NCBI GenBank assembly: GCA_021812145.1
Contig: JAKAOM010000001.1
Coordinates: 21,898 to 85,897 of the forward strand
Direction of reading: 5' to 3'
DNA: 64,000 bases
From: Candidatus Micrarchaeota archaeon
Lineage (GTDB): Archaea > Micrarchaeota > Micrarchaeia > Norongarragalinales > UBA8480
This document shows, piece by piece, positions 16,657 to 61,698 of this stretch (positions are counted from its first letter, which is position 1; each line of letters opens with the position of its first letter). The notes under the pieces were generated by a model, which was given only the letters and a program-made list of their open reading frames with translations, ran no database searches and was not told the origin of the DNA. The position numbers were made by a program, and so were the translations under genes.

Positions 16657-16758
16657 GCAGGGGTGGCTGAGCCTGGTCAAAAGCGCAGGTTGATTTCTGT
16701 GCGACACTTAAGATCCTGTCTCTTAGCGAGTTCGAGGGTTCAAATCCCTCCCCCTGCA
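16657..16758 (+). tRNA. tRNA-Leu (probable anticodon GAG) with ~18-nt intron at non-canonical site in anticodon loop
   Basis: type-II tRNA: acceptor GCAGGGG/CCCCTGC+A, Leu-type D-loop GAGCCTGGTCAAA, long variable arm CTCTTAGCGAGTTC, T-arm GAGGG-TTCAAAT-CCCTC. 25 nt lie between anticodon stem halves GCAGG…CCTGT, and splicing to loop TTGAGAT gives GAG. Confidence 0.7.
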
Positions 16759-16785
16759 TTAACATTAAATTACCCCCGGATTTTT

Positions 16786-18057: not shown

Positions 18058-18157
18058 GCATTATTATTGCAACGCGAAGATTTTAATATTTTTGCATTAT
18101 AATGCACAAAAATCAAATATTTTGTGCACTGCAAAAAAACTAAATATTTTTGTAAAG

Positions 18158-18259
18158 GCAGGGGTGGCTGAGACTGGTCAAAAGCGCAGGTTGATTTCTG
18201 TGCGACACTTAAGATCCTGTCTCTTAGCGAGTTCGAGGGTTCAAATCCCTCCCCCTGCA
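18158..18259 (+). tRNA. tRNA-Leu second copy (intron-containing), 1 mismatch to 16657..16758
   Basis: 102/102 alignment with a single D-loop difference (GAGCCTGG vs GAGACTGG). Confidence 0.65.
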
Positions 18260-18338
18260 TTTACGCCTTTTTTTGTGAATGAAAATCGTTAAAAATGCCT
18301 TTGATTTTAATAATTGCTTAAATTCAAGTTTTTAGTGA

Positions 18339-27809: not shown

Positions 27810-28760
27810 TTGATTTTTTTGAAGTTCTCCATTATAATTCCAGTTAAGCGGTTCAATCCAATGCTTGAACAATGTTTGAACGATTGTTTGAAGCAGAAGA
27901 ACGCAGAAGTTATAGTAATTCCTGACGTTGCTTTTAAGTTTGAAGGAGTTAGAGTTTTAACTTTGAAGGGAAGCCCTTCTGACAAGAGGGATTTCGCTGC
28001 TAAAAAAGCTAAAGGTGAGTTCCTTGCTTTCATTGATGATGATGCTTTTCCTGATAATGATTGGCTTAAGAACAGTTTGAAGTATTTCAAAGAAGGAGTG
28101 GTTGCGGTAGCTGGCCCCGCAGTAACACCTGAAGGGGAGGAGTTGAAGAGGAATGCTAGTGGTTTGATTTTTTCATCTTTTATAGGAGGTGGGGGTTTGG
28201 GCTATAGATATGTTAAGGGTTTTTCAAAGGAGGTTGATGATTATCCTAGTGTTAATTTTATAGTTAAGAAGAGCGATTTTGAAGAGGTTGGGGGTTTTGA
28301 CACGAAGTACTGGCCTGGTGAGGATACTATTTTGTGTTTGAAGCTGAAAAAGTTGGGTAGAAAAATTATTTATACCGGCGATGTGGTTGTTTTTCATCAC
28401 AGGAGGCGCTTGTTTGGTGAGCATTTGAAGCAGGTTTTTTCCTACGCTTTGCACAGGGGTTTTTTTGCTAAAAAATATCCTGAAAACTCGCTTAAGGCAA
28501 AGTATTTCATCCCTTCTGTTTTTGTTTTAAGCGTTGTTGCAGGCTTGATTCTTTCTTTATTCTACAGTTGGGCTTTCCTTGCTCTTGCTTTAGTTCTTTT
28601 TGTTTACTTTTTGGTTGTTTTGCTTGAAAGTTTGAAAACCGCTTTTAAAGAAGGAAGTGTTGAATTGTTTTTCTTGTTTTTCGCAGGCGTTATTTTAACC
28701 CATTTTTTTTACGGGGTTGGTTTTATTAAGGGTTTGCTGTCTAAAGATTTAACTCGTTGA
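27810..28760 (+). CDS. GT2 glycosyltransferase with C-terminal TM helices
   Basis: FSIIIPVKRFN…FIDDDAFPDNDWL, C-terminal hydrophobic segments. Confidence 0.55.
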   Translation: MIFLKFSIIIPVKRFNPMLEQCLNDCLKQKNAEVIVIPDVAFKFEGVRVLTLKGSPSDKRDFAAKKAKGEFLAFIDDDAFPDNDWLKNSLKYFKEGVVAVAGPAVTPEGEELKRNASGLIFSSFIGGGGLGYRYVKGFSKEVDDYPSVNFIVKKSDFEEVGGFDTKYWPGEDTILCLKLKKLGRKIIYTGDVVVFHHRRRLFGEHLKQVFSYALHRGFFAKKYPENSLKAKYFIPSVFVLSVVAGLILSLFYSWAFLALALVLFVYFLVVLLESLKTAFKEGSVELFFLFFAGVILTHFFYGVGFIKGLLSKDLTR

Positions 28761-28789
28761 ATGTTTTAAATTGCAGTGTGATTTGAATT

Positions 28790-30256
28790 TTGAAAAGTTT
28801 GAAAGTTTGCATTACCTACCCCCCTATTGATGAAAGTAAGGGTGTGCCGTTGTTGTCTCAGAACCGTCAGTTTCAGTACTTTAATTCTCCTACTTTTATC
28901 TATCCTATGATTCCTGCTTCAGCCGCTACTCTTTTAAAAAAGAATGGTTTTGAAGTGGTTTGGCTTGACGGCATCGCTGAGCGTTTGAAGCCTGAAGCGT
29001 ATTTGAAAATTCTTGAGAAGGAGAAGCCTGACTTGGTTTTTATTGAAACCAAAACTCCTGTGGTGAAAAAGCATTGGTTGTGGATTGAAAAGATTAAGAA
29101 TGCGGTTCCTAAAGTCAAGGTGGTTTTGGCAGGCGATCATGTTACTGCTTTGCCTGAAGAGTCTTTCAGCAATTCAAGCGTTGATTTTATTCTAGCCGGG
29201 GGGGATTTTGATTTTCTTTTGCTTAATTTAGCGAGTTTTTTGACTGGAAAAACAAAAAAATTGGAAGGTGGGATTTGGTTTAGAAAAGGCAAGGTTTTGA
29301 AAAGCAGTGGAATACCGGTTCAGAATCACGATTTGAATTCAATTCCTTTTATCGACCGTGTTTTGACTAAGTGGAGGCTTTACGCTTATGATAATGGTAA
29401 TTTCAAGAAAACTCCTGGAACTTACACAATGGTTGCAAGGGATTGTTGGTGGAGGAAGAACGGTGGCTGCACTTTTTGCAGTTGGACTACTCTCTACAAG
29501 AGTTTTAAATCCAGGACTCCTGAAAGTCTTTTTGAGGAAGTTAAATATCTAGTTGATACTTTTCATTTCAAGGAGATTTTTGACGATTCAGGAAGTTTCC
29601 CTGCTGGGGTGTGGATTGAAAAATTCTGCAATCTTATGATAGAAAGCGGCTACAATAAAAAAGTAACTTTAGGCTGTAATATGCGAGTTAATGCTTTGAA
29701 TCAAAAACAATACAATTTGATGAAGAAAGCTGGGTTTAGGTTCCTGCTTTACGGGGTCGAAAGCGCTAGCCAGAAAACGCTTGACAGAATAAACAAAGGC
29801 ACAAAAGTTGAAGATACGGCTAAAGCTTGCATGATGGCTAAAAAAGCTGGTTTGGAACCTCATTTGACAGTTATGTTTGGATATCCATGGGAGACTAAAA
29901 CAGACATGTATAATACTGTAAAAGAAGTAAGGGAGATTTTCAGGGAGGGTTGGGCGGACACTCTTCAAGCCACTATAGTCATTCCTTACCCCGGAACAAG
30001 GCTTTTTGACGAGTGCAAAAAGAACAAGTGGCTCAAGACAACAAACTGGGATGAATATGATATGAGAGCGCCTGTAATGAAAAGCAAGGCAGGAGATGAA
30101 GAAATAAAAAAATCCGTTCAGGATTGCTATAAAGTTTTCATGACTCCAAGATATGTTTTAAGAAAGATTGTTGGAATTAGGAGCAAGGAGGATTTGAAGT
30201 TTATCAAGAAAGGGGTTAAATCAGTTTTAGGTCATTTGAAAGACTTTTCAGGTTGA
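28790..30256 (+). CDS. B12-binding-domain radical SAM enzyme
   Basis: N-terminal cobalamin-binding Rossmann-like domain, Cys cluster CWWRKNGGCTFC, radical-SAM core YGVESASQKTLDRINKG. Confidence 0.55.
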   Translation: MKSLKVCITYPPIDESKGVPLLSQNRQFQYFNSPTFIYPMIPASAATLLKKNGFEVVWLDGIAERLKPEAYLKILEKEKPDLVFIETKTPVVKKHWLWIEKIKNAVPKVKVVLAGDHVTALPEESFSNSSVDFILAGGDFDFLLLNLASFLTGKTKKLEGGIWFRKGKVLKSSGIPVQNHDLNSIPFIDRVLTKWRLYAYDNGNFKKTPGTYTMVARDCWWRKNGGCTFCSWTTLYKSFKSRTPESLFEEVKYLVDTFHFKEIFDDSGSFPAGVWIEKFCNLMIESGYNKKVTLGCNMRVNALNQKQYNLMKKAGFRFLLYGVESASQKTLDRINKGTKVEDTAKACMMAKKAGLEPHLTVMFGYPWETKTDMYNTVKEVREIFREGWADTLQATIVIPYPGTRLFDECKKNKWLKTTNWDEYDMRAPVMKSKAGDEEIKKSVQDCYKVFMTPRYVLRKIVGIRSKEDLKFIKKGVKSVLGHLKDFSG

Positions 30257-30272
30257 TTTGAGGTAGTTTTAT

Positions 30273-31103
30273 ATGAAAAAAGCTTTGATTACTGGAATAA
30301 ACAAATCAATTGATAAAATTTATTCAAAAAAATGGCTGGATAATGCATTGAAAGAGGATGAATTTATAAATAAACCCTATTTAGAATTTACAAACTATAA
30401 TTCATATTCTGAATTAAATAAATTAGTCAAAATTGTTGAATTAGTTGAGCTCATGCAAATCAAGAAAGGGGTGAAACCAATTAAAATTAATATTCTTGAA
30501 ATAGGTTGTGGAACTGGAAATATTTGTATCCCTTTAGCGTCCAAGGGGTATAATGTTATTGGCATAGACCTGAACAAAAACGCAATTACTAAAGCAAATC
30601 AAATAAAGAAATCTAAAAAGTTAAATAATGTAAATTTTTTCGTTAAAAATACTTCTGAATATTTTTGTAGCGATTCTATTAAAAAATTTGATATTATTAT
30701 TGCAAGTGATATTTTAGAGCATTTACAAAATCCAATTAATATTTGTACATCCATCTTTGATAATTTAGAAGGTGGTGGTTTTTTCATTGTGACAATTCCA
30801 AATGGATTAGGCTTATCTGAATTATTAATAAATAATTTTTCAAAAAACGTAAGAAAGATTTTAGGCGAAGTTGTTGATGACGGTTATAATCATATTCAGA
30901 GATTTACTATAAATAAAATAAACCTATTACTAACTAAGAGTGGTTTTAAACAAATTAAGTTTATTTGTAATATTGATTTTATTACCTTTTTTCCGTTTAT
31001 AAATAGATCTATTCTTGCAAGGATTGATTTTAAGATTAGTAAATTAATACCTACTTTTTTAGCTAATAGGTGGATTTTTTTAGCAATAAAAACTGATGAT
31101 TAA
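30273..31103 (+). CDS. class I SAM-dependent methyltransferase
   Basis: ILEIGCGTGNICIPLASKGYNVIGIDLN motif I/II. Confidence 0.55.
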   Translation: MKKALITGINKSIDKIYSKKWLDNALKEDEFINKPYLEFTNYNSYSELNKLVKIVELVELMQIKKGVKPIKINILEIGCGTGNICIPLASKGYNVIGIDLNKNAITKANQIKKSKKLNNVNFFVKNTSEYFCSDSIKKFDIIIASDILEHLQNPINICTSIFDNLEGGGFFIVTIPNGLGLSELLINNFSKNVRKILGEVVDDGYNHIQRFTINKINLLLTKSGFKQIKFICNIDFITFFPFINRSILARIDFKISKLIPTFLANRWIFLAIKTDD

Positions 31104-31106
31104 AAA

Positions 31107-32306
31107 GTGGCAATATCTAAAAAATTGACTGTTGGTTTCGTTTCTACTTTCACCCCTGAAAGTAATTATTCTCAATTTTTATCAGAGTCTATCTATAAAT
31201 CAAAACAAAATGACCTTAAACTTATAGCCTACGCACCTTTACATGAAAATGTTTCAAATCTTAGGGTTGGTTTAAAAAAGAAAATTTGGAATTATTTTTG
31301 GTATCCACTTCAAATAGCATTTCATTCCTTTAGAGATAATATTGATATAATACACTTCCAGTATGAGTTTAATATGTATGGTTCTATGATTTTTTCTTCT
31401 TTTTTTCCACTTGCGTTACTACTTCAAAAATTAATCAGAAAAAAAGTAGTAACAACAGTTCATGTTGTAGTGTCTCAAAATGAAATTGATGAAGATTTTA
31501 AATCTACATTCAACGCAAGTTTGTTACCTAGTGCGCTAATAAAGACGTGGTTTTACATTAATTATTTTTTTATAGGGTATATATCGGATACAATTATAGT
31601 ACATTCAGAATGTTTTAAGGAAACACTTGAAAGAGAGTATAAAATTGATAAAAACAAAATAATAGTTTTGAATCACGGAATTCCATCTTATAATAATAAA
31701 GATAAAAAGTTAAATTTGTTTAAAAAACTTATACATAATTACAAAAATAAAAAGGTAATATTATCTTTTGGATACATTACAAAAAGAAAGGGCCTGGATT
31801 ATTTAATAAAAGCCTTTGAAAAAATAAACAAAAAATACAATGAGGTTATTTTAATAATTGCAGGTAATGTATTAATACATGAAAAGAAATATATTGAAAC
31901 ACTTAAAAAAAAAATTGTTGATATTCCAAATATCTTAATAATAGATAGATTTCTAACACTTGATGAAATAAAGGCACTATATTCTAATAGTTACATTTCT
32001 GTTTTTCCATATACTTATTCAATCTCTGCAAGTGGAACAACCGCGTTATCATTTGCTTTTTCAGTTCCATTAATTGTTACAAATTTGGGAAGTTTTAAAG
32101 AGGATATTGAAGAGACTGATTGCGGCATACTAGTCAACAAAAAAAACGCCCATGATTTAGAAAAAGCAATTGAGAAATTATTGACAAACAAAAAAGTTTA
32201 TAAAAAAATAAAATATAAAATGAATATTGTCAAAAAAGAAAGATCTTGGAGCAATATCGCAATTCAAACAATAAATTTATATAAGAATAATTTGGATATT
32301 AATTAG
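31107..32306 (+). CDS. GT4-family (GT-B) glycosyltransferase
   Basis: GYITKRKGLDYLIKAF…ILIIAGN…FPYTYSISASGTTALSFAFSVPLIVTNLGSFKE. Confidence 0.6.
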   Translation: MAISKKLTVGFVSTFTPESNYSQFLSESIYKSKQNDLKLIAYAPLHENVSNLRVGLKKKIWNYFWYPLQIAFHSFRDNIDIIHFQYEFNMYGSMIFSSFFPLALLLQKLIRKKVVTTVHVVVSQNEIDEDFKSTFNASLLPSALIKTWFYINYFFIGYISDTIIVHSECFKETLEREYKIDKNKIIVLNHGIPSYNNKDKKLNLFKKLIHNYKNKKVILSFGYITKRKGLDYLIKAFEKINKKYNEVILIIAGNVLIHEKKYIETLKKKIVDIPNILIIDRFLTLDEIKALYSNSYISVFPYTYSISASGTTALSFAFSVPLIVTNLGSFKEDIEETDCGILVNKKNAHDLEKAIEKLLTNKKVYKKIKYKMNIVKKERSWSNIAIQTINLYKNNLDIN

Positions 32307-32346
32307 GCAATAATACCTATTTTACTTAATTTAAAGATGTTTAAAA

Positions 32347-33057
32347 ATGAATTTAAATAAAATATTTATGAATATATATTTGAGAATTAGAAATTTAGAC
32401 AACAATATGTTTAGAGATTTAATTTTTAAAATTTATTCAGATTTGATATATTTACACCACTTTATACTCAATTCTAAATACTTTTATATTGATGGGAAAA
32501 AATATACTTATTTCTCATCACCGTACTATCAAACATTGGCAACGGAAAGATGTATTGAAATACCGTTTGTACTCTCTTTTATAAATAATAATTCAAAAAC
32601 AAATACTCTAGAAATTGGTAACGTCCTATCTAACCATATCTCATTTAAACATGACGTATTAGACAAATATGAAATTGCTAAGGGAGTTATTAATGAGGAT
32701 GTAGCATATTATAATTTCAAAAAAAAGTATGATTTGATATTATCAATTTCTACTTTGGAGCATGTGGGTTTTGATGAACCTGAACATGATGCTGAAAAGG
32801 TTATAATTGCAATCAAAAATTTAATTAATTCATTGGATAAAAAAGGGATTTTAATAATTAGTGTTCCTCTAGGCTATAATCCGGTTATAGATAAACTTAT
32901 ATTAAGAAATACTTTTAAATTTAAAAAATATTTTATGATTAAAACTTCATTTATGAATACTTGGAAACAAGCAAATATTAGCGAAGCTATGAATAAAAAA
33001 TACGGCAGTAAATATCCATTTGCTAATTCTATTGCTTTTTTATTGTACTATAAATAA
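32347..33057 (+). CDS. methyltransferase-like protein
   Basis: LEIGNVLSNH…DLILSISTLEHVGFDE… resembles Methyltransf_11/23 fold but lacks a clear GxGxG. Confidence 0.3.
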   Translation: MNLNKIFMNIYLRIRNLDNNMFRDLIFKIYSDLIYLHHFILNSKYFYIDGKKYTYFSSPYYQTLATERCIEIPFVLSFINNNSKTNTLEIGNVLSNHISFKHDVLDKYEIAKGVINEDVAYYNFKKKYDLILSISTLEHVGFDEPEHDAEKVIIAIKNLINSLDKKGILIISVPLGYNPVIDKLILRNTFKFKKYFMIKTSFMNTWKQANISEAMNKKYGSKYPFANSIAFLLYYK

Positions 33058-35380
33058 GTATATACAAAATACAAAAAATAAATGTTAGTCCAGATATAAT
33101 ATTTCCAATATAAAATAACGATTGTGGAACAAAATAAAGAGTAATTGTAAAACTATTTTTATTAATCATATTTGGATTAATATACCATCCGTTTGCATAT
33201 CCATTTGCAATAAAATGATTATCACTGAGCGGTGAATAAAATAAATATTTAATATCCGTTAAGTCAAAATTTGCAGTTGAACTTACCTCTTTAATTTTTC
33301 CATTATTATACTCTTGCTCAGTTCCAGATTCAATCATGTTATTTTCGATATAAGCGTTCCATTGTGGGTTATATGCTTGGTTTAAAATTAAGAAAAATGG
33401 ATGAGTTGCATTTTCAATTGAGACAATATACTTGGTTGGATTCACTTCTTGAAAAATTATTTTTGGAATGAAACTTTCATTTGTAGAATTTATCATAGGA
33501 ATTTTATCTAAAACCGTTTGATTTTGTAATATAAACACTTGATAATTATCTTCATTATTTTTTAAAGAATTAAAATAATTACTTATATTATAAGTTATAC
33601 TTAATTTATTAGATACATAAATCCTAGGCACAAATGCTTTATTTTCCCATAAGGATATGTTTTCAAATTTTTTTATCAATTGTATATTAGATGCATTATT
33701 TAAGTAATCCTCAACTTTCGTATAATTCCATTCATTTGAATTTGGACTAAATATTGGCATTACGTCCTTTCTAAGTAGAATATATTTAACATTATAAAAT
33801 GCTAGAATATTAGCGATTATATTACTGTCATTTCCTGAATATACTATTTTTTCAATTGTTGAGACTTCAGTATTCGATATTGATTCAAATGAAATTGCAT
33901 TAATTCCTGCGCTTAGAGTTGGATCTCCTCCTTGATCTTCATTTTGATATTGTGTTTTTAAATAAAGTGGAGAGCTGGTCATAGGAAGAGGTAATACTCT
34001 AAATTGTGAACTATCGTTAAGTATATATTTAATTATGTTACTATAACCTGGTGAAATATTGAAAGAGTCAAGTAAAAAAACATTATCTTTAATTTGTGTT
34101 TGCGTACTAAGATTACCTGTCAACCATGGCGAAACCCAGATTAACAAACCAATCATTAGTACTATTTCTACAAGAATTATTTTAGATTTTCTTTTAGTCT
34201 CTATAATTTTTGAAATTATAAAAAAAGTTCCAAGTCCAATTATAATAGATATTGTAAAAGCAAGTAATACTAAAATGTGTTGTGGGCTTCTAAATAAAAC
34301 CATTAATGGAATATTTTCATAAATCCAAATCCTTAGATTGCCAATTAGAGTTATAGAAGTTGACATGAATAATGAAATAAGGAATAAAAAAATCCAAAAT
34401 AAACTTTTGGTTTTTTTGTTGGTATATAAAAAAAATATTGAAATTATTATTATACTGTATGCGCTAATAAACCATATTAATTGAAAATTTGGATTAATAA
34501 GATATTTAAAAAAATCTGTAAAGTAACCTAAACCAGCAAAAGCGTCTTGAATTGAAGGAATATTATTTGTTATTGTTGAAATTAATAGCGTATTATCTAA
34601 TGAAATACTTTGTTGTAGTGTTTGTGGTATAAGTATAATCCAGTACATATTTAAAAGAAAAAATATAATTATACTTTTTACAATATTTTTGTAAATCGTT
34701 TTTATTTTTTTTGTGAATAAAACATAAAGAACAAATACTAATGTTATTAAAAATAAATTCTGAAGTGAAGAACTTATTATCGTCATAGTAATTGCAAATA
34801 AGAGAACGTCAATAAAGTTAGGTTTGTCTGAACATACTTTTATTAGAAAATAAAAAGCCAGTGGAAAAAATGCATACGTAATAAACTGCGTAGTTGCACC
34901 TCCTATTATTTCATTGAAAAGGAAGGGAGATAATGAATAAAAAACAGCACCAAAAAATTGAGCAAAGAGTTTATAAGAATTGTTTTTAACTTCAAAGTCT
35001 TCACTAATAATTTTTCCAATTAGATAAAACATGGTAATGCCTGACAATAGTATTGTAATAAATACTAACAGTTTTGATATGATTTCTCCATTAAATCCTA
35101 AATAACCCGTACTAGTATATACCATTATAAGTGGAATAAAACTCGCTCCCAGTGGATTAAAATAACCAAGACCAGAATCAACCCATAAATAAGGTGTTTG
35201 AATAAATATTGCCCGTATTTCTTCATTTAGCGGTGGAATTGACCAATCCCAATGATGCCCTAATGTTCCATTATTTAAAACTATACCTCGCAGTACAAAA
35301 AAAGATATAAAAATAAAAAATACAATTGGAAAAATTAATTTTAAAAATTGTTTAAATTTTTTTATATTAGCTATTTCCAA
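33029..35380 (-). CDS. large polytopic membrane protein (possible GT-C-like glycosyltransferase) with C-terminal soluble domain
   Basis: 783 aa, >12 predicted TM helices in first 430 aa, Asn-rich extracytoplasmic C-terminal domain, final TM. Confidence 0.3.
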   Translation of the reverse strand: MEIANIKKFKQFLKLIFPIVFFIFISFFVLRGIVLNNGTLGHHWDWSIPPLNEEIRAIFIQTPYLWVDSGLGYFNPLGASFIPLIMVYTSTGYLGFNGEIISKLLVFITILLSGITMFYLIGKIISEDFEVKNNSYKLFAQFFGAVFYSLSPFLFNEIIGGATTQFITYAFFPLAFYFLIKVCSDKPNFIDVLLFAITMTIISSSLQNLFLITLVFVLYVLFTKKIKTIYKNIVKSIIIFFLLNMYWIILIPQTLQQSISLDNTLLISTITNNIPSIQDAFAGLGYFTDFFKYLINPNFQLIWFISAYSIIIISIFFLYTNKKTKSLFWIFLFLISLFMSTSITLIGNLRIWIYENIPLMVLFRSPQHILVLLAFTISIIIGLGTFFIISKIIETKRKSKIILVEIVLMIGLLIWVSPWLTGNLSTQTQIKDNVFLLDSFNISPGYSNIIKYILNDSSQFRVLPLPMTSSPLYLKTQYQNEDQGGDPTLSAGINAISFESISNTEVSTIEKIVYSGNDSNIIANILAFYNVKYILLRKDVMPIFSPNSNEWNYTKVEDYLNNASNIQLIKKFENISLWENKAFVPRIYVSNKLSITYNISNYFNSLKNNEDNYQVFILQNQTVLDKIPMINSTNESFIPKIIFQEVNPTKYIVSIENATHPFFLILNQAYNPQWNAYIENNMIESGTEQEYNNGKIKEVSSTANFDLTDIKYLFYSPLSDNHFIANGYANGWYINPNMINKNSFTITLYFVPQSLFYIGNIISGLTFIFCILYILIYSTIKKQ

Positions 35381-35396
35381 TCAATTTTCACCTATT

Positions 35397-36098
35397 TTAA
35401 TTATCCTTATTTGTTTTTAATTTACAAAGAAAGATAATCCCTCTTGAAAATAATGATGGCATTGAATAAGTCAGTTCATCCCACACCCTTTTTGGAATCA
35501 ATGATAATCCTTTTTCAATTTTATCACTAACTCCAAGATGGATCCAATACCTTCTACTTATTATTTTAAAATGTTTTTCTATAAACTCATTATCTTGTTT
35601 TATTGTTGGAAAGTGAAGGTGATAATCCGCAGCAAAACCTGTTGCGTCTACGCTATTTCCAAACACCATTTTTATCCTATGATATATGGTGCTCTCATTA
35701 GGTAAAGATATAAGAACCACTCCCTTTTTGTTTAATAATTTTTTTGTTTGCAATATCAACTTTTCAGGATCTTTTAAATGTTCTAAAATTTCAGCTAAAA
35801 TTATAATATCAAATTTTTCATTAAGCTTAATTTTTTCATTTTCTAAATTTACCTTAAAAACTTTAAAAGCACCTCTTTTCTTTGCAATTTTAAGCGCCTT
35901 TTTATCAAAATCCACTCCATAATACTTAATGTTTTTATGACCAAAAATTTTTATTGTATCTCCCATATAGCAACCAATATCTAAAACTTTTACATCTTTT
36001 TTTATAAATGGGTTTAAAAGAGACTTGAAAATTTTAAATCTCTCTTTTGCGTATTTATCATTCAATATATTTTTATATACCATTTTATTGTAATTCAT
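35397..36098 (-). CDS. class I SAM-dependent methyltransferase
   Basis: VKVLDIGCYMGDTIKIF…IIILAEILEHL. Confidence 0.5.
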   Translation of the reverse strand: MNYNKMVYKNILNDKYAKERFKIFKSLLNPFIKKDVKVLDIGCYMGDTIKIFGHKNIKYYGVDFDKKALKIAKKRGAFKVFKVNLENEKIKLNEKFDIIILAEILEHLKDPEKLILQTKKLLNKKGVVLISLPNESTIYHRIKMVFGNSVDATGFAADYHLHFPTIKQDNEFIEKHFKIISRRYWIHLGVSDKIEKGLSLIPKRVWDELTYSMPSLFSRGIIFLCKLKTNKDN

Positions 36099-36102
36099 TA
36101 TT

Positions 36103-37131
36103 TTATCTCTTTATTTGATTTTTAAATAAATTTTCTGTTAATCCAACAATTGTGCCTCTTATCCCTTTCAGATAGCTTATTTGTTTTGTACTTATAAATT
36201 TATATACTAAAAATAAATTTAAAAATATAAGGTATGAAAAAAATCTTATTGATTTATCAATTGTATTCAGTTTAATGTTAATAAAATAAAAATTAATAAA
36301 ATTTAATGTTCTTTCATATGAATTTGACCTATTTGCAAACACTCCGTTTTGATCTACAAGGTGTTTAACTACTGCTTTTGGATTAAAAATTATCTTATAT
36401 CCTTCCCTTATTATTTTAAACGAAACGTCTGCTTCTGAGTAGTCACCAATCCCTAGATATTTTCTGTCAAAATAACCTATCTTTATTAAAATATGTCTTC
36501 TTATAGCCATGTTGCAGGCTTCATGATGATCTACGTTAATTGACTTTTTAAATTTACAATTTTCTTTATAGTTAGATCCGACAGAAAAAGCTCCGCTCCT
36601 AAAAAATTTTCCAATGCTTTTTTCTTTACCCTCAAGAAAATAATTAAAATATATTTTGCCTAAAATATGCCAAAAAATATTTCCATTTTGCAGTTTTTTT
36701 TGAAAATAAAACAAATCTCTTTTATTTTTTAAATTTTCGGGTATTATTGTTGGACCCGTTACTCCCCCTATCTTTTTCGATTCATTAAATGTTTTTACAA
36801 TTTCATTAATCCATTCTTTGTCTGCGACTATATCATCATCCGTTCTTACTATAATTTCTCCTTTTGAAACTAATATTCCTTCGTTTATTGCATTTACTAA
36901 TCCTTTTTCCTTCTGTTTTATTATTTTAATTTTTAATTCTTTATGATTCTTTATTACTTTTTTTGTGTTATTTGTATCTCCTCCTTCTACTATAACGATT
37001 TCAAAATTTTTAAACGTTTCTTTATTCAATGATATAAGGCATCTTTCTAAACTTTGTTCTCTATTCATAGTGGGTATTATTATTGAAACTTTAGGTATAT
37101 TTTTATTCATCTTTAACCCAACCTCTAGCAT
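36103..37131 (-). CDS. GT2 glycosyltransferase
   Basis: PKVSIIIPTMNREQSLERCL…VIVEGGDTNN…DDD. Confidence 0.55.
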   Translation of the reverse strand: MLEVGLKMNKNIPKVSIIIPTMNREQSLERCLISLNKETFKNFEIVIVEGGDTNNTKKVIKNHKELKIKIIKQKEKGLVNAINEGILVSKGEIIVRTDDDIVADKEWINEIVKTFNESKKIGGVTGPTIIPENLKNKRDLFYFQKKLQNGNIFWHILGKIYFNYFLEGKEKSIGKFFRSGAFSVGSNYKENCKFKKSINVDHHEACNMAIRRHILIKIGYFDRKYLGIGDYSEADVSFKIIREGYKIIFNPKAVVKHLVDQNGVFANRSNSYERTLNFINFYFINIKLNTIDKSIRFFSYLIFLNLFLVYKFISTKQISYLKGIRGTIVGLTENLFKNQIKR

Positions 37132-38161
37132 TGCCTATTTTTTTTGTTCCTTTAAGTTTGTTTAAAAAATACGATATTTCTCTTTTTTTAATTATCTTTG
37201 GTAAAATTTCACTATCGCTTACTACTCTATTTTTTTGTATTCTTCTTCTTTTTTCTAGTATCCTTTTTAAATTAGTTAGATTCCAAACCAATCCTAAAAT
37301 TATCCATTTTGAACTTTTGAATTTTCTTTTTGAAAAAAGAAAAGTTGCAATTCCAAACCATAAAAAAATATGAATTGTTAAAATTTTAATTAGGTTTTTA
37401 AATTCTAAATTTTTAATCAAAGTTTGTACATAATTTTTTGCACCATGAAATTTAACAAAATAATTTATGTCATTTTTTAGAATAATTGAGCTAGTTCCAA
37501 ATCTATGATAAATTATTGAGTTTGGTATCAGCATAACTTTAGATCCTTTAAGCCAAATTCTCCAACATAGGTCGCTCTCTTCAACATATATAAAATAATC
37601 ATCATCAAACCCGTTTATTTCATCTAACGCGTCTTTTCTTGCGATCATACCTGCAGATTTTGCAGCAAAAATCTCCTTAATTTCATCATATTGCCCATTA
37701 TCATTTTCCTTTCCAGCTTCAACAATATTAACTAAAAATCCATTTTGACCTATATATTCTCCTACAGAATCTATTTTGTTTGTTTTACTTATAATAAGTT
37801 TTAACTGTCCAGCTCCTACATTAGGATTATTTTCAAGAAATTTTACCGCGTTTTTTAACCACATTGAAGTTACAGTTGTGTCATTATCTAAAAAAACTAC
37901 GTACTTTCCTTTTGCTTCTTTGATTCCTTCATTTCTTGCGGATGAGGGGCCAATATTTTTGTCATTTTGAATAATTTTTAATTTTAATTTTTTAATTGAT
38001 TTTTTAATATACTCAACGCTTCCGTCAGTTGAACCATTATCTATAACAATAACCTCAAAATTAGTGTATTTTGTAGTATATAATGATTCTAAGCATTCTT
38101 TTAAATAAATTTTACCATTATAATTTACTATTACAACAGAAACAAGTGGTTCTTTATTCAT
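37103..38161 (-). CDS. GT2 glycosyltransferase
   Basis: PLVSVVIVNYNGKIYLKECLESL…VIVIDNGSTDGS…FLDNDT. Confidence 0.6.
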   Translation of the reverse strand: MNKEPLVSVVIVNYNGKIYLKECLESLYTTKYTNFEVIVIDNGSTDGSVEYIKKSIKKLKLKIIQNDKNIGPSSARNEGIKEAKGKYVVFLDNDTTVTSMWLKNAVKFLENNPNVGAGQLKLIISKTNKIDSVGEYIGQNGFLVNIVEAGKENDNGQYDEIKEIFAAKSAGMIARKDALDEINGFDDDYFIYVEESDLCWRIWLKGSKVMLIPNSIIYHRFGTSSIILKNDINYFVKFHGAKNYVQTLIKNLEFKNLIKILTIHIFLWFGIATFLFSKRKFKSSKWIILGLVWNLTNLKRILEKRRRIQKNRVVSDSEILPKIIKKREISYFLNKLKGTKKIGNARGWVKDE

Positions 38162-38318
38162 TTATATCTCTCACATACTTTTTTTAATAAAGTTGTTTTT
38201 TAAAAGTTTATCCTGTTTTTATCTGATGATATTGCTTTATATTTTTGTAATGAAAAGCTTTTTAAAACTCTTTTTAGGATATGTTTTGTTAAAATGGTTG
38301 AGCTTTCAATTTCAAGCT

Positions 38319-39695
38319 TTAAGCTTTTTGCTGGAAGGCATTGGAAGTGGTTTTTGGTTTAGTTTTGTATTGTAGTATTTGTTGTATTGCCATGCCTGCT
38401 AGAGCGCTTACTGAGATGAATACTAGAACTGCTGAGCGTATGTAGGTTCTGAGTGTGGGGCTTATTTGGTATAGGTAGTAGGTGATGTTGTTGAATTGGA
38501 CTCCAAGGACTTTTGGTTGGGGGCCTATTGACATTATTACCCCTAGGATTGCGAGGAGGATGAAAAAGATGATTGCTTGGTTGTTGAGGTTGGTTTTTTG
38601 TTTTTGGGTTTTTTTGTAAATCCAATAAATTATAAGAAGGGTTGCGAGGATTAGGCTGGTGTAGCTTATGTATATTTCTTGTTCCACTTCGCTTGCAGTT
38701 CCGTTAATGTAGCTTCCTAGGTTGTTGATTATTGTGTTTTTAAATAATGGGTTTTGATAGTATGGAATTAAATAGTAAGCTAGGCTTGTGGTGCTTCCTG
38801 TTTGTACGTTGGCGTAGCTTCTGGTTATTGGTGGTCCTTGTGTTAGGTAATTTGTGATTAAGGGGTAGTTGAATATTGTGAATAGTATTAGGAAGGTGGT
38901 TATTGCTATTAGCGTTTTTTTGATTTTTTCTTTGTTTATTTGGAGATCTTTTTTGAGTACTTGGTAAATTATTTTTGCTATTATATATGTTACGGTTGCT
39001 GCGAGCATGAAGGCTGCGTAGTAGTAGTCTGTGAAGAAGTTGAGAGCTAATAAGGCTCCGCAGAGGATGGCGTTGGCGGTGTTTGGTTTTTCGTCTAGTT
39101 TGAATAGAAATAGAATATAGAGGGGCATCCATTGCATTTGTGCTAGAGTAGTGTCTAGTTGGATTCTTATGAAATGATATGGTGCGAACGCATATATTAT
39201 TCCTGAGATAAAACTTGATGTGTTATTTTTTGTGAAGTGTTTGGTTAATATAAACATTGTTATTGCAGATAGAGGTATACTGGAGAGCATTATGAGATTG
39301 TATACTAAAATTTGGTTGCCTAATATACTGAAAAGAAATGACATAGCTGGAATGTATGGAGACCATAATACTGTTGAAATTCCTCCTTGTGATAGGGCTA
39401 TCATTGTGTTGTTTATAATATTTAAGCCGTGGGTTATAGCGTAGTTGTCCCACCACATGAGGTATAATCCGCCTATTGGGTCGCTGTATTGATAGAAGTA
39501 TTTCCCATAGACTTCTGTAGTTAGGTTTAATATTAATGGCCAAGTTGTTATTATTGCTATTAGGCAGTAAGTGATTAATGCACTTATTTCAGTTTGATAT
39601 TGTAATGTTTTTTCTGTTATTTTTTTTATTATTGTTTGTCTAGTCTGTTGTGTTTTTTTTTGGATATTTATACCTACTTTGTTTTTTTTTTCCAT
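38319..39695 (-). CDS. polytopic membrane protein (possible glycan polymerase/GT-C-like)
   Basis: 458 aa, ~10 TM helices; start overlaps divergent ORF at 39636. Confidence 0.3.
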   Translation of the reverse strand: MEKKNKVGINIQKKTQQTRQTIIKKITEKTLQYQTEISALITYCLIAIITTWPLILNLTTEVYGKYFYQYSDPIGGLYLMWWDNYAITHGLNIINNTMIALSQGGISTVLWSPYIPAMSFLFSILGNQILVYNLIMLSSIPLSAITMFILTKHFTKNNTSSFISGIIYAFAPYHFIRIQLDTTLAQMQWMPLYILFLFKLDEKPNTANAILCGALLALNFFTDYYYAAFMLAATVTYIIAKIIYQVLKKDLQINKEKIKKTLIAITTFLILFTIFNYPLITNYLTQGPPITRSYANVQTGSTTSLAYYLIPYYQNPLFKNTIINNLGSYINGTASEVEQEIYISYTSLILATLLIIYWIYKKTQKQKTNLNNQAIIFFILLAILGVIMSIGPQPKVLGVQFNNITYYLYQISPTLRTYIRSAVLVFISVSALAGMAIQQILQYKTKPKTTSNAFQQKA

Positions 39696-39722
39696 TTTGT
39701 TGGTTTATTTTTGTTTTTGGTA

Positions 39723-40565
39723 ATGGTTTTAAATGCTTTCTTTGTTTATTTACCTAGCATGGATTGGTTTTCCCGATGGTTTGAACGTTTTCCTGCTTCT
39801 AATTTTGTTTTGTTTTGTGGTTTGTTGCTGATTTTTTCCCTTCCTTTTTTGATTGTTTCTGGTTTGAATGCGGAGAGGGTGGCGGTTTTTGCTTATTTGT
39901 TCTTGTTTTTGGGCGTTTTGATGCGTTTGGTGGAGTTGAAGGCGGGTTGGTTTAATCGTTTTTTTACTGGTATTTGGATTTTTTTAGTTGGCTTTTTTAG
40001 TTTTTTCTCAGGAGTTTGGAGTGTGTTTAAGTCTGAGTTGGACGCGTGGTGGAAGTGGGGTTTTGTTTTCGTATTGCTATTCATGCTGTTGGTCGAGTAT
40101 GCTGTTCCTTTGGGTTTTGTTTCCAGCGTTGGAAGTGTGCCTGATGTTTATCAGTGGCTTGCAAATCAAACAGGACTTTTTACAGTTGCGGAGTATCCGA
40201 TGATTCCTGAGGTTTATTTCTATCCTTTTAATGTTAGCGATCCTTATTATGTTTTTTATAGTCAGTTCACTGGTAAGCGCTTGTTTAACGGCGCTACGGG
40301 GGGTGTGGGTAAGTTTGTGGAGCAGGACGTTCAGAATCTTTCCAGTCCTGAAACCCCTTCAATTTTGGCTTGGTACAACGTTTCTTATGTTATTGTTCAC
40401 TATCCTGTGAATTCTTACGCAGTTTATTCTGGATTGCACTTGGTGAAGGTTTTTCCTGACGCTAGCGTTTACAGTGTTACAGCTTCCCCTTCGCTGGTTT
40501 GGGGTAGCGAGTTGGCACAATTGAAGGAGAGTTTAAGTGCTAATCAGAGCAATATTGTTTCTTGA
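39723..40565 (+). CDS. membrane protein with C-terminal soluble domain (start uncertain: 39636/39723/39759)
   Basis: N-terminal TM helices; ORF-track start would overlap the divergent gene by 60 nt. Confidence 0.3.
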   Translation: MVLNAFFVYLPSMDWFSRWFERFPASNFVLFCGLLLIFSLPFLIVSGLNAERVAVFAYLFLFLGVLMRLVELKAGWFNRFFTGIWIFLVGFFSFFSGVWSVFKSELDAWWKWGFVFVLLFMLLVEYAVPLGFVSSVGSVPDVYQWLANQTGLFTVAEYPMIPEVYFYPFNVSDPYYVFYSQFTGKRLFNGATGGVGKFVEQDVQNLSSPETPSILAWYNVSYVIVHYPVNSYAVYSGLHLVKVFPDASVYSVTASPSLVWGSELAQLKESLSANQSNIVS

Positions 40566-50262: not shown

Positions 50263-50451
50263 ATGTTTGTTTTTGTGAAGAGTGGCGAGAGGAGGAAGCG
50301 GGTGGTGGTGAAGGCTGGAGCGTTGGCGGGCAGCGTGGTCAAGTTGAGTGAGGTTGGCGTGCTGAAGGTGAATGGGAAGGTAGCTCACCCTAAAAAAGTG
50401 TTGAAGGAAGGGGACGTGGTGGAGTTCGTTCGCGTTGTTTACGGCGGATAG
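50263..50451 (+). CDS. ThiS/MoaD-family ubiquitin-like small archaeal modifier protein (SAMP), C-terminal GG
   Basis: 62 aa ending …VLKEGDVVEFVRVVYGG (β-grasp sulfur-carrier signature). Confidence 0.55.
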   Translation: MFVFVKSGERRKRVVVKAGALAGSVVKLSEVGVLKVNGKVAHPKKVLKEGDVVEFVRVVYGG

Positions 50452-50494
50452 TTTTTCTTTTAATTTTTGTTTTTCAACGATAGGCGTTTTTTTT

Positions 50495-51415
50495 ATGGTC
50501 GAGTGCAGTTTGTGCGGCAGGGAAGCGGTTGTAGAGTTGAATTACAACGGTTTTTCTCTGTGCGAGGGTTGTTTTGTAAGGCAGTTTGAACGCAGGGTTA
50601 GGAAGGCTTTGAGACTGGCTGGTTTTTTCAAGCGAGGTGCGCGTGTGTTGGTTGGGGTTAGTGGAGGCAAGGATAGCGCTGCTTTGTTGAGTGTGTTGGC
50701 TAAGTTTAACTCGCGCGTTGGAGCGGTTTTGCTACCTGTTCTTGTTGACGAGGGTATTGACGGTTATAGAAATAAGGCGAGGGTGACTGCTGAGAAACTT
50801 TGCGCTTCTCTTGATTTGGAACTTAATGTTTATAGTTTTAGGGATTTGTTTGGTTTTGGTTTGGACGAAGTGGAGGGTTTGGATTCTGCCAGGGATGCCT
50901 GCGCTTTTTGCGGAGTTTGGAGAAGGTGGGTTTTGAATAAGGCTGCTGTTGACTTGCATGCTGACGCGGTGGTGGTTGGGCATAACGCTGACGATGTTGG
51001 CCAGAGTTTTCTTATGAATTTGCTGAGGAATAGCTCAAGCGTTTTGAGTAGGAGTGGGTTGGAGAGTGGGGGGGTTAAGGGTTTGTTTGTCCCGCGTTTC
51101 AAGCCTTTGGCTTTTAATTTGGAAAGGGAGAGTGCGATTTATTGTTTTTTGAGAGATATTCCCTTCTATCTTGGAGGCTGCCCTTACTATGCTGGTTTCA
51201 GGGTTGGAATTAAGGACTTTCTGAACGAGGTTGAGGGGGTTTATCCTGGCAGCAAGTTTGCTTTGAGCAAGGCTTCTTTTGAGGTTCAGAAGGCTCTTCC
51301 GTCGGATAAACGCCGCGTTTTTAAGTGTTCAAAGTGTGGGTTTAGTTCTTCCAGCGATGTTTGCATGGCCTGTTCGCTGCGCGATGAAGTGGGTGTTTTG
51401 TTTAAGAAGGGCTAG
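50495..51415 (+). CDS. PP-loop tRNA thiolation ATPase (NcsA/TtuA family) with N- and C-terminal zinc fingers
   Basis: CSLCG…CEGC, PP-loop VGVSGGKDSAAL, C-terminal CSKCG…CMAC. Confidence 0.65.
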   Translation: MVECSLCGREAVVELNYNGFSLCEGCFVRQFERRVRKALRLAGFFKRGARVLVGVSGGKDSAALLSVLAKFNSRVGAVLLPVLVDEGIDGYRNKARVTAEKLCASLDLELNVYSFRDLFGFGLDEVEGLDSARDACAFCGVWRRWVLNKAAVDLHADAVVVGHNADDVGQSFLMNLLRNSSSVLSRSGLESGGVKGLFVPRFKPLAFNLERESAIYCFLRDIPFYLGGCPYYAGFRVGIKDFLNEVEGVYPGSKFALSKASFEVQKALPSDKRRVFKCSKCGFSSSSDVCMACSLRDEVGVLFKKG

Positions 51416-51599
51416 AGTTTTTCTTGATTCTTTTTTCTATAGCTCCCGCAAGCTTGTTTACCTGCACGTTGTTTTTAAGATTGTATTTTTCTTTTATTTT
51501 TCTTTTTACTTCATTGAAGTTTTCACTTGAATTTTTGAAGTCTTGCTCATATATTTTTTCAGCAGTCTTGTGTATTTCAAAGCTTTTTGTTCTTCCCAT
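51402..51599 (-). CDS. rps17e: 30S ribosomal protein S17e
   Basis: MGRTKSFEIHKTAEKIYEQ…NKLAGAIEKRIKK resembles S17e (MG-IRT--VKR-A-E--E…NKIAGY). Confidence 0.55.
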   Translation of the reverse strand: MGRTKSFEIHKTAEKIYEQDFKNSSENFNEVKRKIKEKYNLKNNVQVNKLAGAIEKRIKKNSSPS

Positions 51600-51655: not shown

Positions 51656-51746
51656 TAGCCCCGAGCGGATTCGAACCGCTGTCAACAGGTCCAAAGCCTG
51701 CTATCCTTAGCTTTTTTTTTAAATTTAGCCGCTAGACGACGGGGCT
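51656..51746 (-). tRNA. tRNA-Gln (anticodon TTG) with ~18-nt A/T-rich intron in the D-loop
   Basis: revcomp AGCCCCG-TC-GTCT-AGCGGCTAA[ATTTAAAAAAAAAGCTAA]GGAT-A-GCAGG-CTTTGGA-CCTGT-TGAC-AGCGG-TTCGAAT-CCGCT-CGGGGCT-A; perfect acceptor/T-arm/anticodon arm; D-loop only normal length if 18 nt are removed. Confidence 0.6.
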
Positions 51747-51794
51747 TTTTTTGAACCTCTTTGTTTTTTTGGTTGCTTTTAGTTTTTTAATTTT

Positions 51795-52418
51795 TTGCCG
51801 CGTGTTTTTTACGGTCTTCCTGTTGGTTTTTTATACTTGTTTGTTTTTTATTTGTGTTATATGGTCGGAGTCAAGCTTTTCAGGTTTACCCTGTTCTTGT
51901 TGGATAATATATTTGCCTTTTCAGCGGTTATACTGCTTATTTCTTTAGGGGTTAGCGTTTATCTTTTTTTGATGCGTTTTTTTCCAAGTGTCAGGCCAGT
52001 TTGGTTTGAGTGGGTTAGCGTGGCGCTTTTGGGTTTATTGCCTTTGATTGTTTTTTTTGGATTGATTGTTTTTATGCTTTTGATTTTCGATGTTTTGGTG
52101 TCTGTTTTTCCAGAACAAAGTTTGACTGTGCCTTTCACTGTCGAGGTTGTAAAAGCTAGAATCACCAGGGTTTTTGCTGAAAAGGAAGTGCCGTGGTTTT
52201 TGTTCAGCGCTGTTTTTGGTTTTGAGGGTTTTTTAATGGTTTTTTTCAGGAAGATTTTCAGGTTGCGACCGCCTATTTCTTATTTTTCCAGAAAGCCTTT
52301 CGTGTTGATTAGGCTTTATGATAGGGGTGCTTCAACCAGCGTTTCTATTGTTTCAGATTCAAATATTAGAGCAAGGACTTTGGCTAAGTATGTTGAGACT
52401 TCTATTAAGTACCTGTGA
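51795..52418 (+). CDS. polytopic membrane protein, unknown function
   Basis: 207 aa, 4-5 TM helices. Confidence 0.3.
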   Translation: MPRVFYGLPVGFLYLFVFYLCYMVGVKLFRFTLFLLDNIFAFSAVILLISLGVSVYLFLMRFFPSVRPVWFEWVSVALLGLLPLIVFFGLIVFMLLIFDVLVSVFPEQSLTVPFTVEVVKARITRVFAEKEVPWFLFSAVFGFEGFLMVFFRKIFRLRPPISYFSRKPFVLIRLYDRGASTSVSIVSDSNIRARTLAKYVETSIKYL

Positions 52419-60372: not shown

Positions 60373-61698
60373 TTATCTGTATTTCAGTAGGGCGTTTTCT
60401 TTAAGGCCCTGTATTGCGTTTGTTGTTGTTACCGTTCTTGAGAGGCTTGGCGAGTGTTTTTGTGGTTTTTTAGCCAGTATTAGCGTTACCTCGTCGTTGT
60501 TTTTGAGGGTGGTTTCTTTTCCAGCGTTTTTGTTGTTTATTATCCCGCCTTGTACGTAATGTCCTAGGTGGATGCTTTGGTTTTTTTGTTTTGGCGTGTT
60601 GTATGCCGCGTCTAGAATTGTTGAGTTTTTTGGCAGGTTGAGCTCGTGGATTTTTCCTTCGGCGTTTACTTTTATGTTTATCAGGTCGTACTTGTTTGAC
60701 TCGTCTATTAACTGCATTGCCTCTTTTTCCTTGTTTTGGTCATACAGCACTATTGCCTTTTTTGCCACTTCTATTTTTGGGTCTAGCTGGCGGTTTAGCC
60801 CGCTTTTGTAGAACGCGTGTTTTATGTTTTCGTTTTCTTGTATTTCTTCATGCATTTTTTTTGTTCTAATCTGCACTTCGAATGGCGTTCCGTCTTTCTT
60901 TTTCATTGTCAAGTGCAGTGATTGATATCCGTTTGGTTTTTGGTTTTTTATGTAGTCCTTTTCTTCAATCGTTTCACCGATTTGTTTCACTATTTTTTTT
61001 GCTTTTTCTATTTCTTCGTTTTTTTCAACTATTATTCTCATTCCTATATAGTCCTTTACTTCTCTTTTTTTGTAGAATATGCTTGCCGGGCTTTTTACCC
61101 TTGACTCTATTTGAAAGTTAATTCCATCGCTTGTTAGTTTTTCGTTGATTTCGTTTCTTATTACGTGCATTTTTTCCTCAAAGTTTTGTTTTTGTATGAA
61201 TTTTTTTATTTTATCGTATTGTTTTGGTTCTTTTATTTGGAATGCCTTGTTTATCATTTCGTTTGCCATTTGATGCATTCCTAGAAGCTCTGCTATTGGC
61301 GCGTATATTTTCAGCGTTCTTTCTGCTGCATTGTTTTTTTGTTGGGTGTTTGTTTTTGGGTTTGTTATTCTTTCCCTTTGGTCGATCAATCGTAGTAGGA
61401 ATATTTTAGGATTTAGTGTAACGTCTTCTAGGTTTGATTTAAACTCGTTGTTTTCTTGTTTTATGAAATGTTGCTGGAAGTGGTGGACGAGTTCTCTAGC
61501 TTCCTGGTCTACTTTGTAGTTTGATTGCTGTGGAATTTCATAGAATTTAACTCCGTGAAATAGTGCGGCGGTTATCAGAGCCGCGTCGGCTTTTTTTTCA
61601 TATAGCGTTTTGGCAGTGTTTATATAATGAGTGTAGTCGTCTCCGTATGCTTGCTTGGCTTGGTTTATTTGTTTTTTGTATTCTTCTTCAAATGTCAC
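60373..61698 (-). CDS. RelA/SpoT-homolog (RSH): degenerate HD, (p)ppGpp-synthetase domain, TGS domain
   Basis: synthetase block DYIGMRIIV…KPNGYQSLHLTM…EVQIRTKKMHE; HD motif degraded to AALFHGVKF; C-terminal TGS-like …HLGHYVQGGIINNK…. Confidence 0.6.
   Translation of the reverse strand: MTFEEEYKKQINQAKQAYGDDYTHYINTAKTLYEKKADAALITAALFHGVKFYEIPQQSNYKVDQEARELVHHFQQHFIKQENNEFKSNLEDVTLNPKIFLLRLIDQRERITNPKTNTQQKNNAAERTLKIYAPIAELLGMHQMANEMINKAFQIKEPKQYDKIKKFIQKQNFEEKMHVIRNEINEKLTSDGINFQIESRVKSPASIFYKKREVKDYIGMRIIVEKNEEIEKAKKIVKQIGETIEEKDYIKNQKPNGYQSLHLTMKKKDGTPFEVQIRTKKMHEEIQENENIKHAFYKSGLNRQLDPKIEVAKKAIVLYDQNKEKEAMQLIDESNKYDLINIKVNAEGKIHELNLPKNSTILDAAYNTPKQKNQSIHLGHYVQGGIINNKNAGKETTLKNNDEVTLILAKKPQKHSPSLSRTVTTTNAIQGLKENALLKYR

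Follow-up and report, generated by a model that had tools for sequence, protein, structure and literature searches.

The 91-nt locus at positions 51656..51746, on the minus strand of the window (the entire 64-kb stretch of DNA analysed here), is, as read from its sequence, a tRNA-Gln gene of a DPANN-type (Micrarchaeota-like) archaeon in which the D-loop is interrupted by an 18-nt intron with an archaeal splicing signal. Very probably, this is a functional tRNA-Gln(UUG) gene with a relaxed BHB intron at position 21/22, which is predicted to be cut by EndA, with the exons joined by an RtcB-type ligase. The splicing motif, the clean product, the conservation and covariation of the junction and the membership of the intron in a family are all directly observed.

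The initial annotation placed here a tRNA-Gln(TTG) with an A1-U72 start and canonical arms, without stating the strand; the gene is found precisely at this location, on the minus strand, and is delimited by the sequence itself, by the call on the spliced product and by a match to a covariance model (R1, see below), with no encoded CCA. The precursor reads AGCCCCG-TC-GTCT-AGCGGCTAAATTTAAAAAAAAAGCTAA (27 nt)-GGAT-A-GCAGG-CTTTGGA-CCTGT-TGAC-AGCGG-TTCGAAT-CCGCT-CGGGGCT-A on this strand. The regular parts of the locus are the acceptor stem with A1-U72, the anticodon arm (UUG at 51692..51694, minus strand, identified from the sequence and from the ARAGORN call on the spliced form), the 4-nt variable loop, the T-arm and A73. 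Between GTCT and GGAT, there are 27 nt, with GCTAA present twice around ATTTAAAAAAAAA, exactly as previously described. Removal of 18 nt converts the precursor into a 73-nt molecule that ARAGORN recognizes as tRNA-Gln(ttg), with a 9-nt D-loop, AGCGGCUAA, and A21 restored. All the archaeal tRNA-Gln traits are present in the spliced form, namely A1-U72, the UUG anticodon, A73, a short D-loop and a 4-nt variable loop; A1-U72 and the short D-loop are identity features for GatDE (PMC2330236).

Given that GCUAA is repeated, six pairs of cuts yield the identical product, and the BHB register picks A21|G22 among them. The 5' exon (tRNA positions 1-21; 51725..51746, minus strand; cut after precursor nucleotide 22 in the BHB scan) then consists of the acceptor 5' strand, U8 C9, the D-stem 5' strand GUCU and the D-loop AGCGGCUAA. 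The intron AUUUAAAAAAAAAGCUAA, at position 21/22 (51707..51724, minus strand), is placed by product restoration together with the BHB register and consists of 67% A and 89% A+U. The 3' exon (positions 22-73; 51656..51706, minus strand), defined by the spliced product, the BHB scan and comparison with orthologues, includes the D-stem 3' strand GGAU, the anticodon arm, the 4-nt variable loop, the T-arm, the acceptor 3' strand and the A73 discriminator. The 91-nt precursor yields no ARAGORN call, with the intron option either on or off, and the Rfam tRNA model scores the locus at 27.9 bits, against the gathering score of 29, with the 5' half mis-aligned.

When the whole precursor is scanned for the BHB geometry (a 4-bp helix flanked by one 3-nt bulge on each strand, with cleavage 3' of the second base of the bulge), the tRNA-restoring cut comes out first, with 4/4 pairs in the central helix and 3 bp in the inner helix. 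A search for such a motif around positions 20-23 had been named beforehand as a check, and this is where the motif is located, with the cut at 21/22. In the central helix, the exon strand GGCU (G18 G19 C20 U20a; precursor nucleotides 17-20; 51727..51730, minus strand) pairs across the exon-intron boundary with the strand AGCU near the intron 3' end (precursor nucleotides 35-38; 51709..51712, minus strand), with 4/4 pairs formed, one of these being G-U. The 5' splice site is in a clean AAA bulge (A21 A|A, cleaved between the second and third A; 51724..51726, minus strand) between the central helix and the inner helix h', a 3-bp UUU/AAA stem that closes a 5-nt AAAAA loop (51713..51723, minus strand). 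The 3' splice site, AA|G22 (51706..51708, minus strand), is opposite the unpaired A14-G15-C16, so that it forms part of an internal loop and is not a clean bulge; fold evaluation indicates that it is a 3-nt site only if U13-G22 opens. Thus, the earlier remark that there is little obvious helix for a BHB turned out to be wrong. An outer helix h of at least 2 bp, as in the strict hBHBh' motif, is not found in the precursor, where only C16-G42 (1 bp) pairs at this place, in competition with the D-stem. Because the outer helix is essentially absent and the 3' site lies in an internal loop, the predicted structure is relaxed (HBh'-like) rather than strict hBHBh', and fits the published relaxed HBh'/hBH category (PMC6379350).

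Folding energies are -28.6 kcal/mol for the cloverleaf with the D-stem and the central helix and -27.4 kcal/mol when the inner helix is included, compared to -24.4 kcal/mol for an open 27-nt loop and -30.1 kcal/mol for the MFE fold, which employs a competing register, UAGC/GCUA. From these energies, it follows that the central helix carries the stability, and that the inner helix, with its three A-U pairs that cost +1.2 kcal/mol to add, is thermodynamically marginal. The BHB structure as a whole is beyond chance: only 0.44% of the same-composition shuffles of the insert reach a 4/4 central helix at the product-restoring cut, and 0 of 50,000 combine it with a 3-bp inner helix, the corresponding values for random inserts of 40% GC being 3.4% and 0.17%.

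The gene has syntenic counterparts in three other species-level genomes (loci L018, L045 and L120), where, as in the window, a TtuA-like gene flanks it on one side, SMC is located upstream, and the downstream gene is a small one, probably for S17e. The exons in L018, L045, L014, L063 and L120 are 100% identical to those in the window, whereas the flanking DNA of L018, L045 and L120 is 65-75% identical. The introns in the window, L018, L045 and L120 (18, 16, 18 and 24 nt, respectively) differ in their interiors but retain the bulges along with GGCU...(A/G)GCU. A compensatory change distinguishes the inner helix of L045 (UCU/AGA) from that of the window (UUU/AAA). The CUG isoacceptor is intron-bearing as well in the genomes of two of the syntenic relatives (L014 and L063). 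A metagenome scan for these exons that allowed a gap of 0 to 30 nt detects no intron-less allele; the one contig of this clade recovered by the scan is intron-bearing. Upstream of the gene, an A/T box, AAAAAATTAAAAAAC (51782..51796, minus strand), is found 36-50 nt from the mature 5' end; this box, AAAAAWATTAAAAAAC, is the sole conserved flanking block in the five closest tRNA-Gln loci, of both isoacceptors, in diverged surroundings, and is likely to be an archaeal BRE/TATA promoter.

The gene that adjoins tRNA-Gln(UUG) in the window (50435-51415, plus strand) encodes a TtuA/Ncs6-type tRNA 2-thiolation enzyme (PP-loop, TtuA LIM and zinc ribbon), and the small downstream ORF (51402-51599, minus strand) encodes a 65-aa probable S17e that matches the family weakly (PF00833, E=0.056). 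The arrangement of the TtuA, S17e-like and tRNA-Gln(UUG) genes is conserved in L018, L045 and L120. The window lacks the T-run that follows the tRNA in the relatives, so that, there, one transcript may cover both the tRNA and the S17e-like ORF.

In a scan that covered a single genome for each prokaryotic species, at least 119 loci match as tRNA-Gln-like genes with additional nucleotides between G19 and C32; with 7 bacterial false positives and L073, which gave no re-match, left out, there are at least 111 archaeal loci. All of these yield a valid tRNA-Gln once the BHB-bounded insert is excised, the procedure that picks the cut in homologues having required valid D-arm and anticodon-arm geometry of the product. 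The initial description of D-loop introns as rare and reported mainly from Thermoproteales and a few DPANN and other lineages understates their abundance in tRNA-Gln, where the species-level D-arm intron loci come mostly from many DPANN phyla and Thermoproteales. In at least 54 loci, as in the window, the intron is located exactly at 21/22, with a 4/4 central helix, which amounts to about half of the loci listed; the labels of these 21/22 loci include Woese-, Pace-, Nano-, Aenigmat-, Micr-, Parv- and Nanohaloarchaeota as well as about a dozen Pyrobaculum/Thermoproteus genomes. The remaining listed loci fall into the neighbouring D-arm classes 19/20, 20/21, 22/23 and 25/26. With D-arm introns in archaeal phyla that are far apart, this arm of tRNA-Gln looks like a hot-spot for introns.

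Within the 21/22 class, the helix combinations among the matches listed are GGCC/GGCY (23), GGUC/GACY (20) and GGCU/AGCU (5); in the listed members, the third pair of the central helix is C-G in 30 and U-A in 21, and the fourth is C-G in 47 and U-A in 5. Of the 53 listed members, 40 have AAA as the 5' bulge, and all 53 have an outer helix of 0-1 bp. In the junction alignment, 95.7% of the cells are paired, against 77.6% after shuffling (0/500), with 110 both-side changes against 30 in the shuffles, and slid registers show only 31-55% pairing. The central helix is 99.5% paired, with compensatory changes, in 49 homologues, a value that is somewhat favoured by the choice of the cut through maximisation of central-helix pairs; the inner helix, in which all three pairs covary across the 21/22 class listed, and the covariance model test are free of this circularity. 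The model in question, R1, which combines the cloverleaf with the BHB, was derived from 39 members of other lineages, with the window and its closest relatives left out. It matches the window at 51746..51656 with 97 bits (E=1.9e-24) over its full length (positions 1-104 of 104); all 28 modelled pairs form, none of them non-canonical, and the next match in the window scores 18 bits. Thus, the A/T-rich D-loop intron of approximately 18 nt that was originally proposed is backed by the clean product, the BHB register, the covariation in relatives and this family match. The window intron is among the shortest, and is the most A+U-rich, in the 21/22 class listed.

The other D-arm classes are represented by introns at 19/20 (L011, L015, L030, L034, L051, L052, L061, L067, L083, L093 and L109), 22/23 (L008, L033, L060, L086 and L097) and 25/26 (L024, L035, L049, L079, L089, L094 and L101), with carriers that include Hadarchaeales, Micr-, Aenigmat-, Woese- and Iainarchaeota. 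Each class has a conserved junction of its own, e.g., GYGG UC|...CCRY AA|A; GCCA AG|...UGGU AA|G; AAGG AU|...CCUU NA|A. Five loci, L058 (JAHYJW010000004.1), L108 (DAOTCN010000002.1), L030, L071 and L117, come from contigs labelled as bacterial (Patescibacteria/Paceibacterota) or as "uncultured Methanosarcinales". Their tRNA-Gln is nevertheless archaeal, with A1-U72, and its 21/22 BHB intron is DPANN-type and nearly identical to the copies in Pace- and Woesearchaeota; the respective contigs are probably mis-binned or mislabelled DPANN.

In the proposed mechanism, transcription would start from the upstream A/T box, and the precursor would fold such that G18 G19 C20 U20a of the D-loop are held with the intron AGCU in the 4-bp central helix, with the 5' site in the AAA bulge between this helix and the UUU/AAA hairpin and the 3' site, AA|G, between the helix and the D-stem. 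EndA, presumably a broad-specificity enzyme encoded outside the window, would cut A21|A and A|G22, and an RtcB-type ligase would join the exons into the canonical 73-nt tRNA with the 9-nt D-loop. In archaea, cleavage by EndA produces 2',3'-cyclic phosphate and 5'-OH ends that are subsequently ligated by RtcB. By analogy with this established pathway, the gene is presumably transcribed, and its intron is almost certainly spliced out by EndA and an RNA ligase.

The weak intron hairpin and the missing outer BHB helix would also fit a mature tRNA that retains the 18 nt in an expanded, 27-nt D-loop. However, between identical exons, the inserts range from 16 to 24 nt and differ in sequence, with only the BHB-forming bases kept, and the BHB helices show compensatory covariation; moreover, the helix would sequester G18 and G19, which the folded tRNA needs for the D/T-loop contact. 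In GatDE, the archaeal enzyme that makes Gln-tRNA-Gln, positions 19/20 are read and extra D-loop bases are an antideterminant (PMC2330236), so that, assuming that this organism uses GatDE, the unspliced tRNA-Gln should be unusable. Retention of the insert hence appears unlikely. The failure of standard tools to detect the gene, and the fact that the data span 64 kb of the genome, are compatible with a decaying or silent pseudogene, with a separate intact tRNA-Gln(UUG) elsewhere doing the work, but the complete conservation of the exons at a syntenic site amid diverged flanks, the conserved A/T box, the presence of introns in both isoacceptors in two relatives and the lack of an intron-less allele in the metagenome scan, even with gap 0 allowed (with one contig of the clade there), all speak against decay. 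Furthermore, a permissive Rfam scan detects no second tRNA-Gln in the 64-kb window, even below the threshold, and no other hidden tRNAs. A pseudogene is, accordingly, very unlikely.

The perfect 5-nt direct repeat, GCTAA, around the 13-nt A/T-rich core ATTTAAAAAAAAA is what would be expected of a scar left by insertion of a mobile element, with GCTAA being the 5-bp target-site duplication. Against such an origin, the homologues with GGTCAA...GACCAT and GGTCAA...GACTAT pair fully without a direct repeat, and the repeat is seen only where the helix is near-palindromic (GGCC, GGCU/AGCU), which implies that it is the pairing that is conserved and not the duplication. The repeat itself is explained by the near-palindromic helix (GGCU/AGCU) and by both bulges beginning with AA, which makes the junctions alike. 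Given that homologues keep complementarity rather than repetition, the target-site duplication was ruled out as the reading of GCTAA, and an insertion scar is extremely unlikely. All three alternatives are disfavoured by the combination of drift under constraint in the orthologues with covariation, and the preferred reading is the functional gene with a spliced 21/22 intron.

Non-canonical BHB introns, including those in the D-loop, belong to textbook archaeal biology, so that the mechanism is not new; the window intron is of a known kind, which relatives commonly carry. tRNA-Glu is the sister family of tRNA-Gln. Among the non-canonical intron sites on the standard list are the D-arm positions 20/21, 22/23 and 25/26 (PMC4090602). 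In Aeropyrum pernix, the pre-tRNA-Thr(UGU) contains a BHB intron inside the D-loop, as in the window; it undergoes splicing in vivo, EndA by itself suffices in vitro, and the mature tRNA is functional. Cleavage of this intron is slower than that of a 37/38 intron and requires EndA with a specificity loop (PMC3241643). That case differs in the tRNA and the phylum (Crenarchaeota) and in that the BHB is described as canonical and is experimentally verified, whereas the window intron is predicted, relaxed (without an outer helix) and much more A/U-rich. The pre-tRNA-Glu(UUC) of Methanopyrus kandleri has a relaxed HBh' intron at 20b/21, with the mature form seen by RNA-seq (PMC5829648), i.e., an intron of the same relaxed type in essentially the same place, at the 3' end of the D-loop next to the D-stem 3' strand; unlike the window gene, this tRNA-Glu additionally has a canonical 37/38 intron, and the organism is euryarchaeal, with an (alpha-beta)2 EndA that lacks the specificity loop. 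The 21/22 introns in tRNA-Gln of Thermoproteales (Pyrobaculum, Thermoproteus) and other DPANN share with the window the G18 G19 N20 N20a exon half, the AA| 5' bulge and the absence of an outer helix; those listed are mostly longer (median 27 nt), with inner helices of 2-12 bp, and are G+C-richer in Thermoproteales.

A DPANN comparison is provided by Micrarchaeum (ARMAN-2), where 56% of the tRNA genes are disrupted and an epsilon2 EndA of broad specificity cleaves relaxed motifs (PMC3239211). The two genomes are alike in being Micrarchaeota-type DPANN with many disrupted tRNA genes (56% there, 3/5 in the window); the ARMAN-2 introns tested in these accounts are located at 37/38 and 59/60, not in the D-loop, and the main texts make no mention of a D-loop intron in tRNA-Gln (PMC3239211, PMC3488258, PMC12397907). 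The training sets of the published BHB models came from Cren-, Eury- and Thaumarchaeota (PMC8450103). The breadth of the G18/G19-anchored 21/22 tRNA-Gln intron was not found stated in the part of the relevant literature that was searched, and its spread across DPANN and Thermoproteales may be under-described.

The gene content of the window is archaeal, with genes for CDP-archaeol synthase, L10e, an S-layer protein, FtsZ and TtuA-type and TrmI-type tRNA enzymes, and the window matches NCBI assembly GCA_027320585.1 (contig DAHVKZ010000004.1). Among its five tRNA genes, the two for tRNA-Thr are uninterrupted, and two for tRNA-Leu(UAA) are interrupted along with tRNA-Gln (3/5). Both tRNA-Leu(UAA) genes (16657-16758 and 18158-18259, plus strand; one mismatch between the copies) are 102 nt long with a 16-nt intron, for which the best reading is a non-canonical BHB at 30/31, CGCA GG|uugauuucug UGCG AC|A, with a 3-bp outer helix and an 86-nt product; in the Rfam alignment of these genes, a 25-nt insert falls within the anticodon loop. 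The fact that both carry such introns implies that the organism must splice them, and the requirement for non-canonical BHB splicing in 3 of the 5 tRNA genes in the window argues for a broad-specificity endonuclease. No EndA (tRNA_int_endo) or RtcB Pfam domain is detected in the 40 window ORFs tested; therefore, these enzymes are encoded elsewhere in the genome.

For the 102-nt genes, the intron mode of ARAGORN calls Leu(AAG), which was dropped in favour of Leu(UAA) with the 30/31 intron. The precursor at 16657-16758 (plus strand) contains a second possible BHB at the canonical 37/38 site, UUGA UU|...UUAA GA|U, with the anticodon stem as the outer helix; excision there would give a class-II Leu body the Ile anticodon GAU, which was judged implausible (U37) and taken as an odd coincidence. 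The two copies are parts of a 107-bp repeat (98% identical; 16657-18264) that brackets a single minus-strand ORF (16786-18057; AAA_14 + DUF4143 ATPase), an arrangement suggestive of duplication of a tRNA gene around an inserted ORF, which may be the footprint of an integration event.

The main value of these observations is in annotation: ARAGORN and Rfam miss the tRNA-Gln gene, and ARAGORN mis-reads the two tRNA-Leu genes. Because standard finders miss or mis-read such genes, DPANN tRNA complements and completeness estimates will be too low when obtained without BHB-aware tools. In addition, more than 100 naturally occurring variants of D-arm introns in a single tRNA, with clear covariation, provide a ready panel of substrates for broad-specificity splicing endonucleases. 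G18-G19 of the D-loop is universally conserved. It is conceivable, if rather doubtful, that the 21/22 tRNA-Gln introns of most DPANN phyla and Thermoproteales comprise a single ancient (or repeatedly transferred) family that is anchored on G18-G19 and persists as a maturation checkpoint. Under such a scenario, the unspliced intron would lock G18/G19/N20, which are engaged in the D/T-loop contact and read by GatDE, in the BHB helix and, if this is true, only the spliced tRNA-Gln could be folded, charged and amidated. The 18-nt, 89% A+U intron would, if true, also be close to a minimal substrate, with the EndA of this lineage needing little beyond a 4-bp helix and one clean bulge.

Several other features of the window merit mention. 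A RelA/SpoT-type protein (HD + RelA_SpoT + TGS; 60373-61698, minus strand) is encoded next to a class-II FBP aldolase and FtsZ, in a DPANN-like genome. Directly beside a tRNA-Thr gene, there is a gene for an SLT-domain lytic transglycosylase (13630-14280, plus strand; E=3e-32) in this archaeon, which may bear on life as an episymbiont of bacteria or other hosts. Finally, a low-GC island at approximately 28000-40000 (25-32%, compared to about 40% elsewhere), with densely packed genes for GT2/GT4 glycosyltransferases and SAM methyltransferases, looks, from its composition and gene content, like a horizontally variable surface-glycan cluster.
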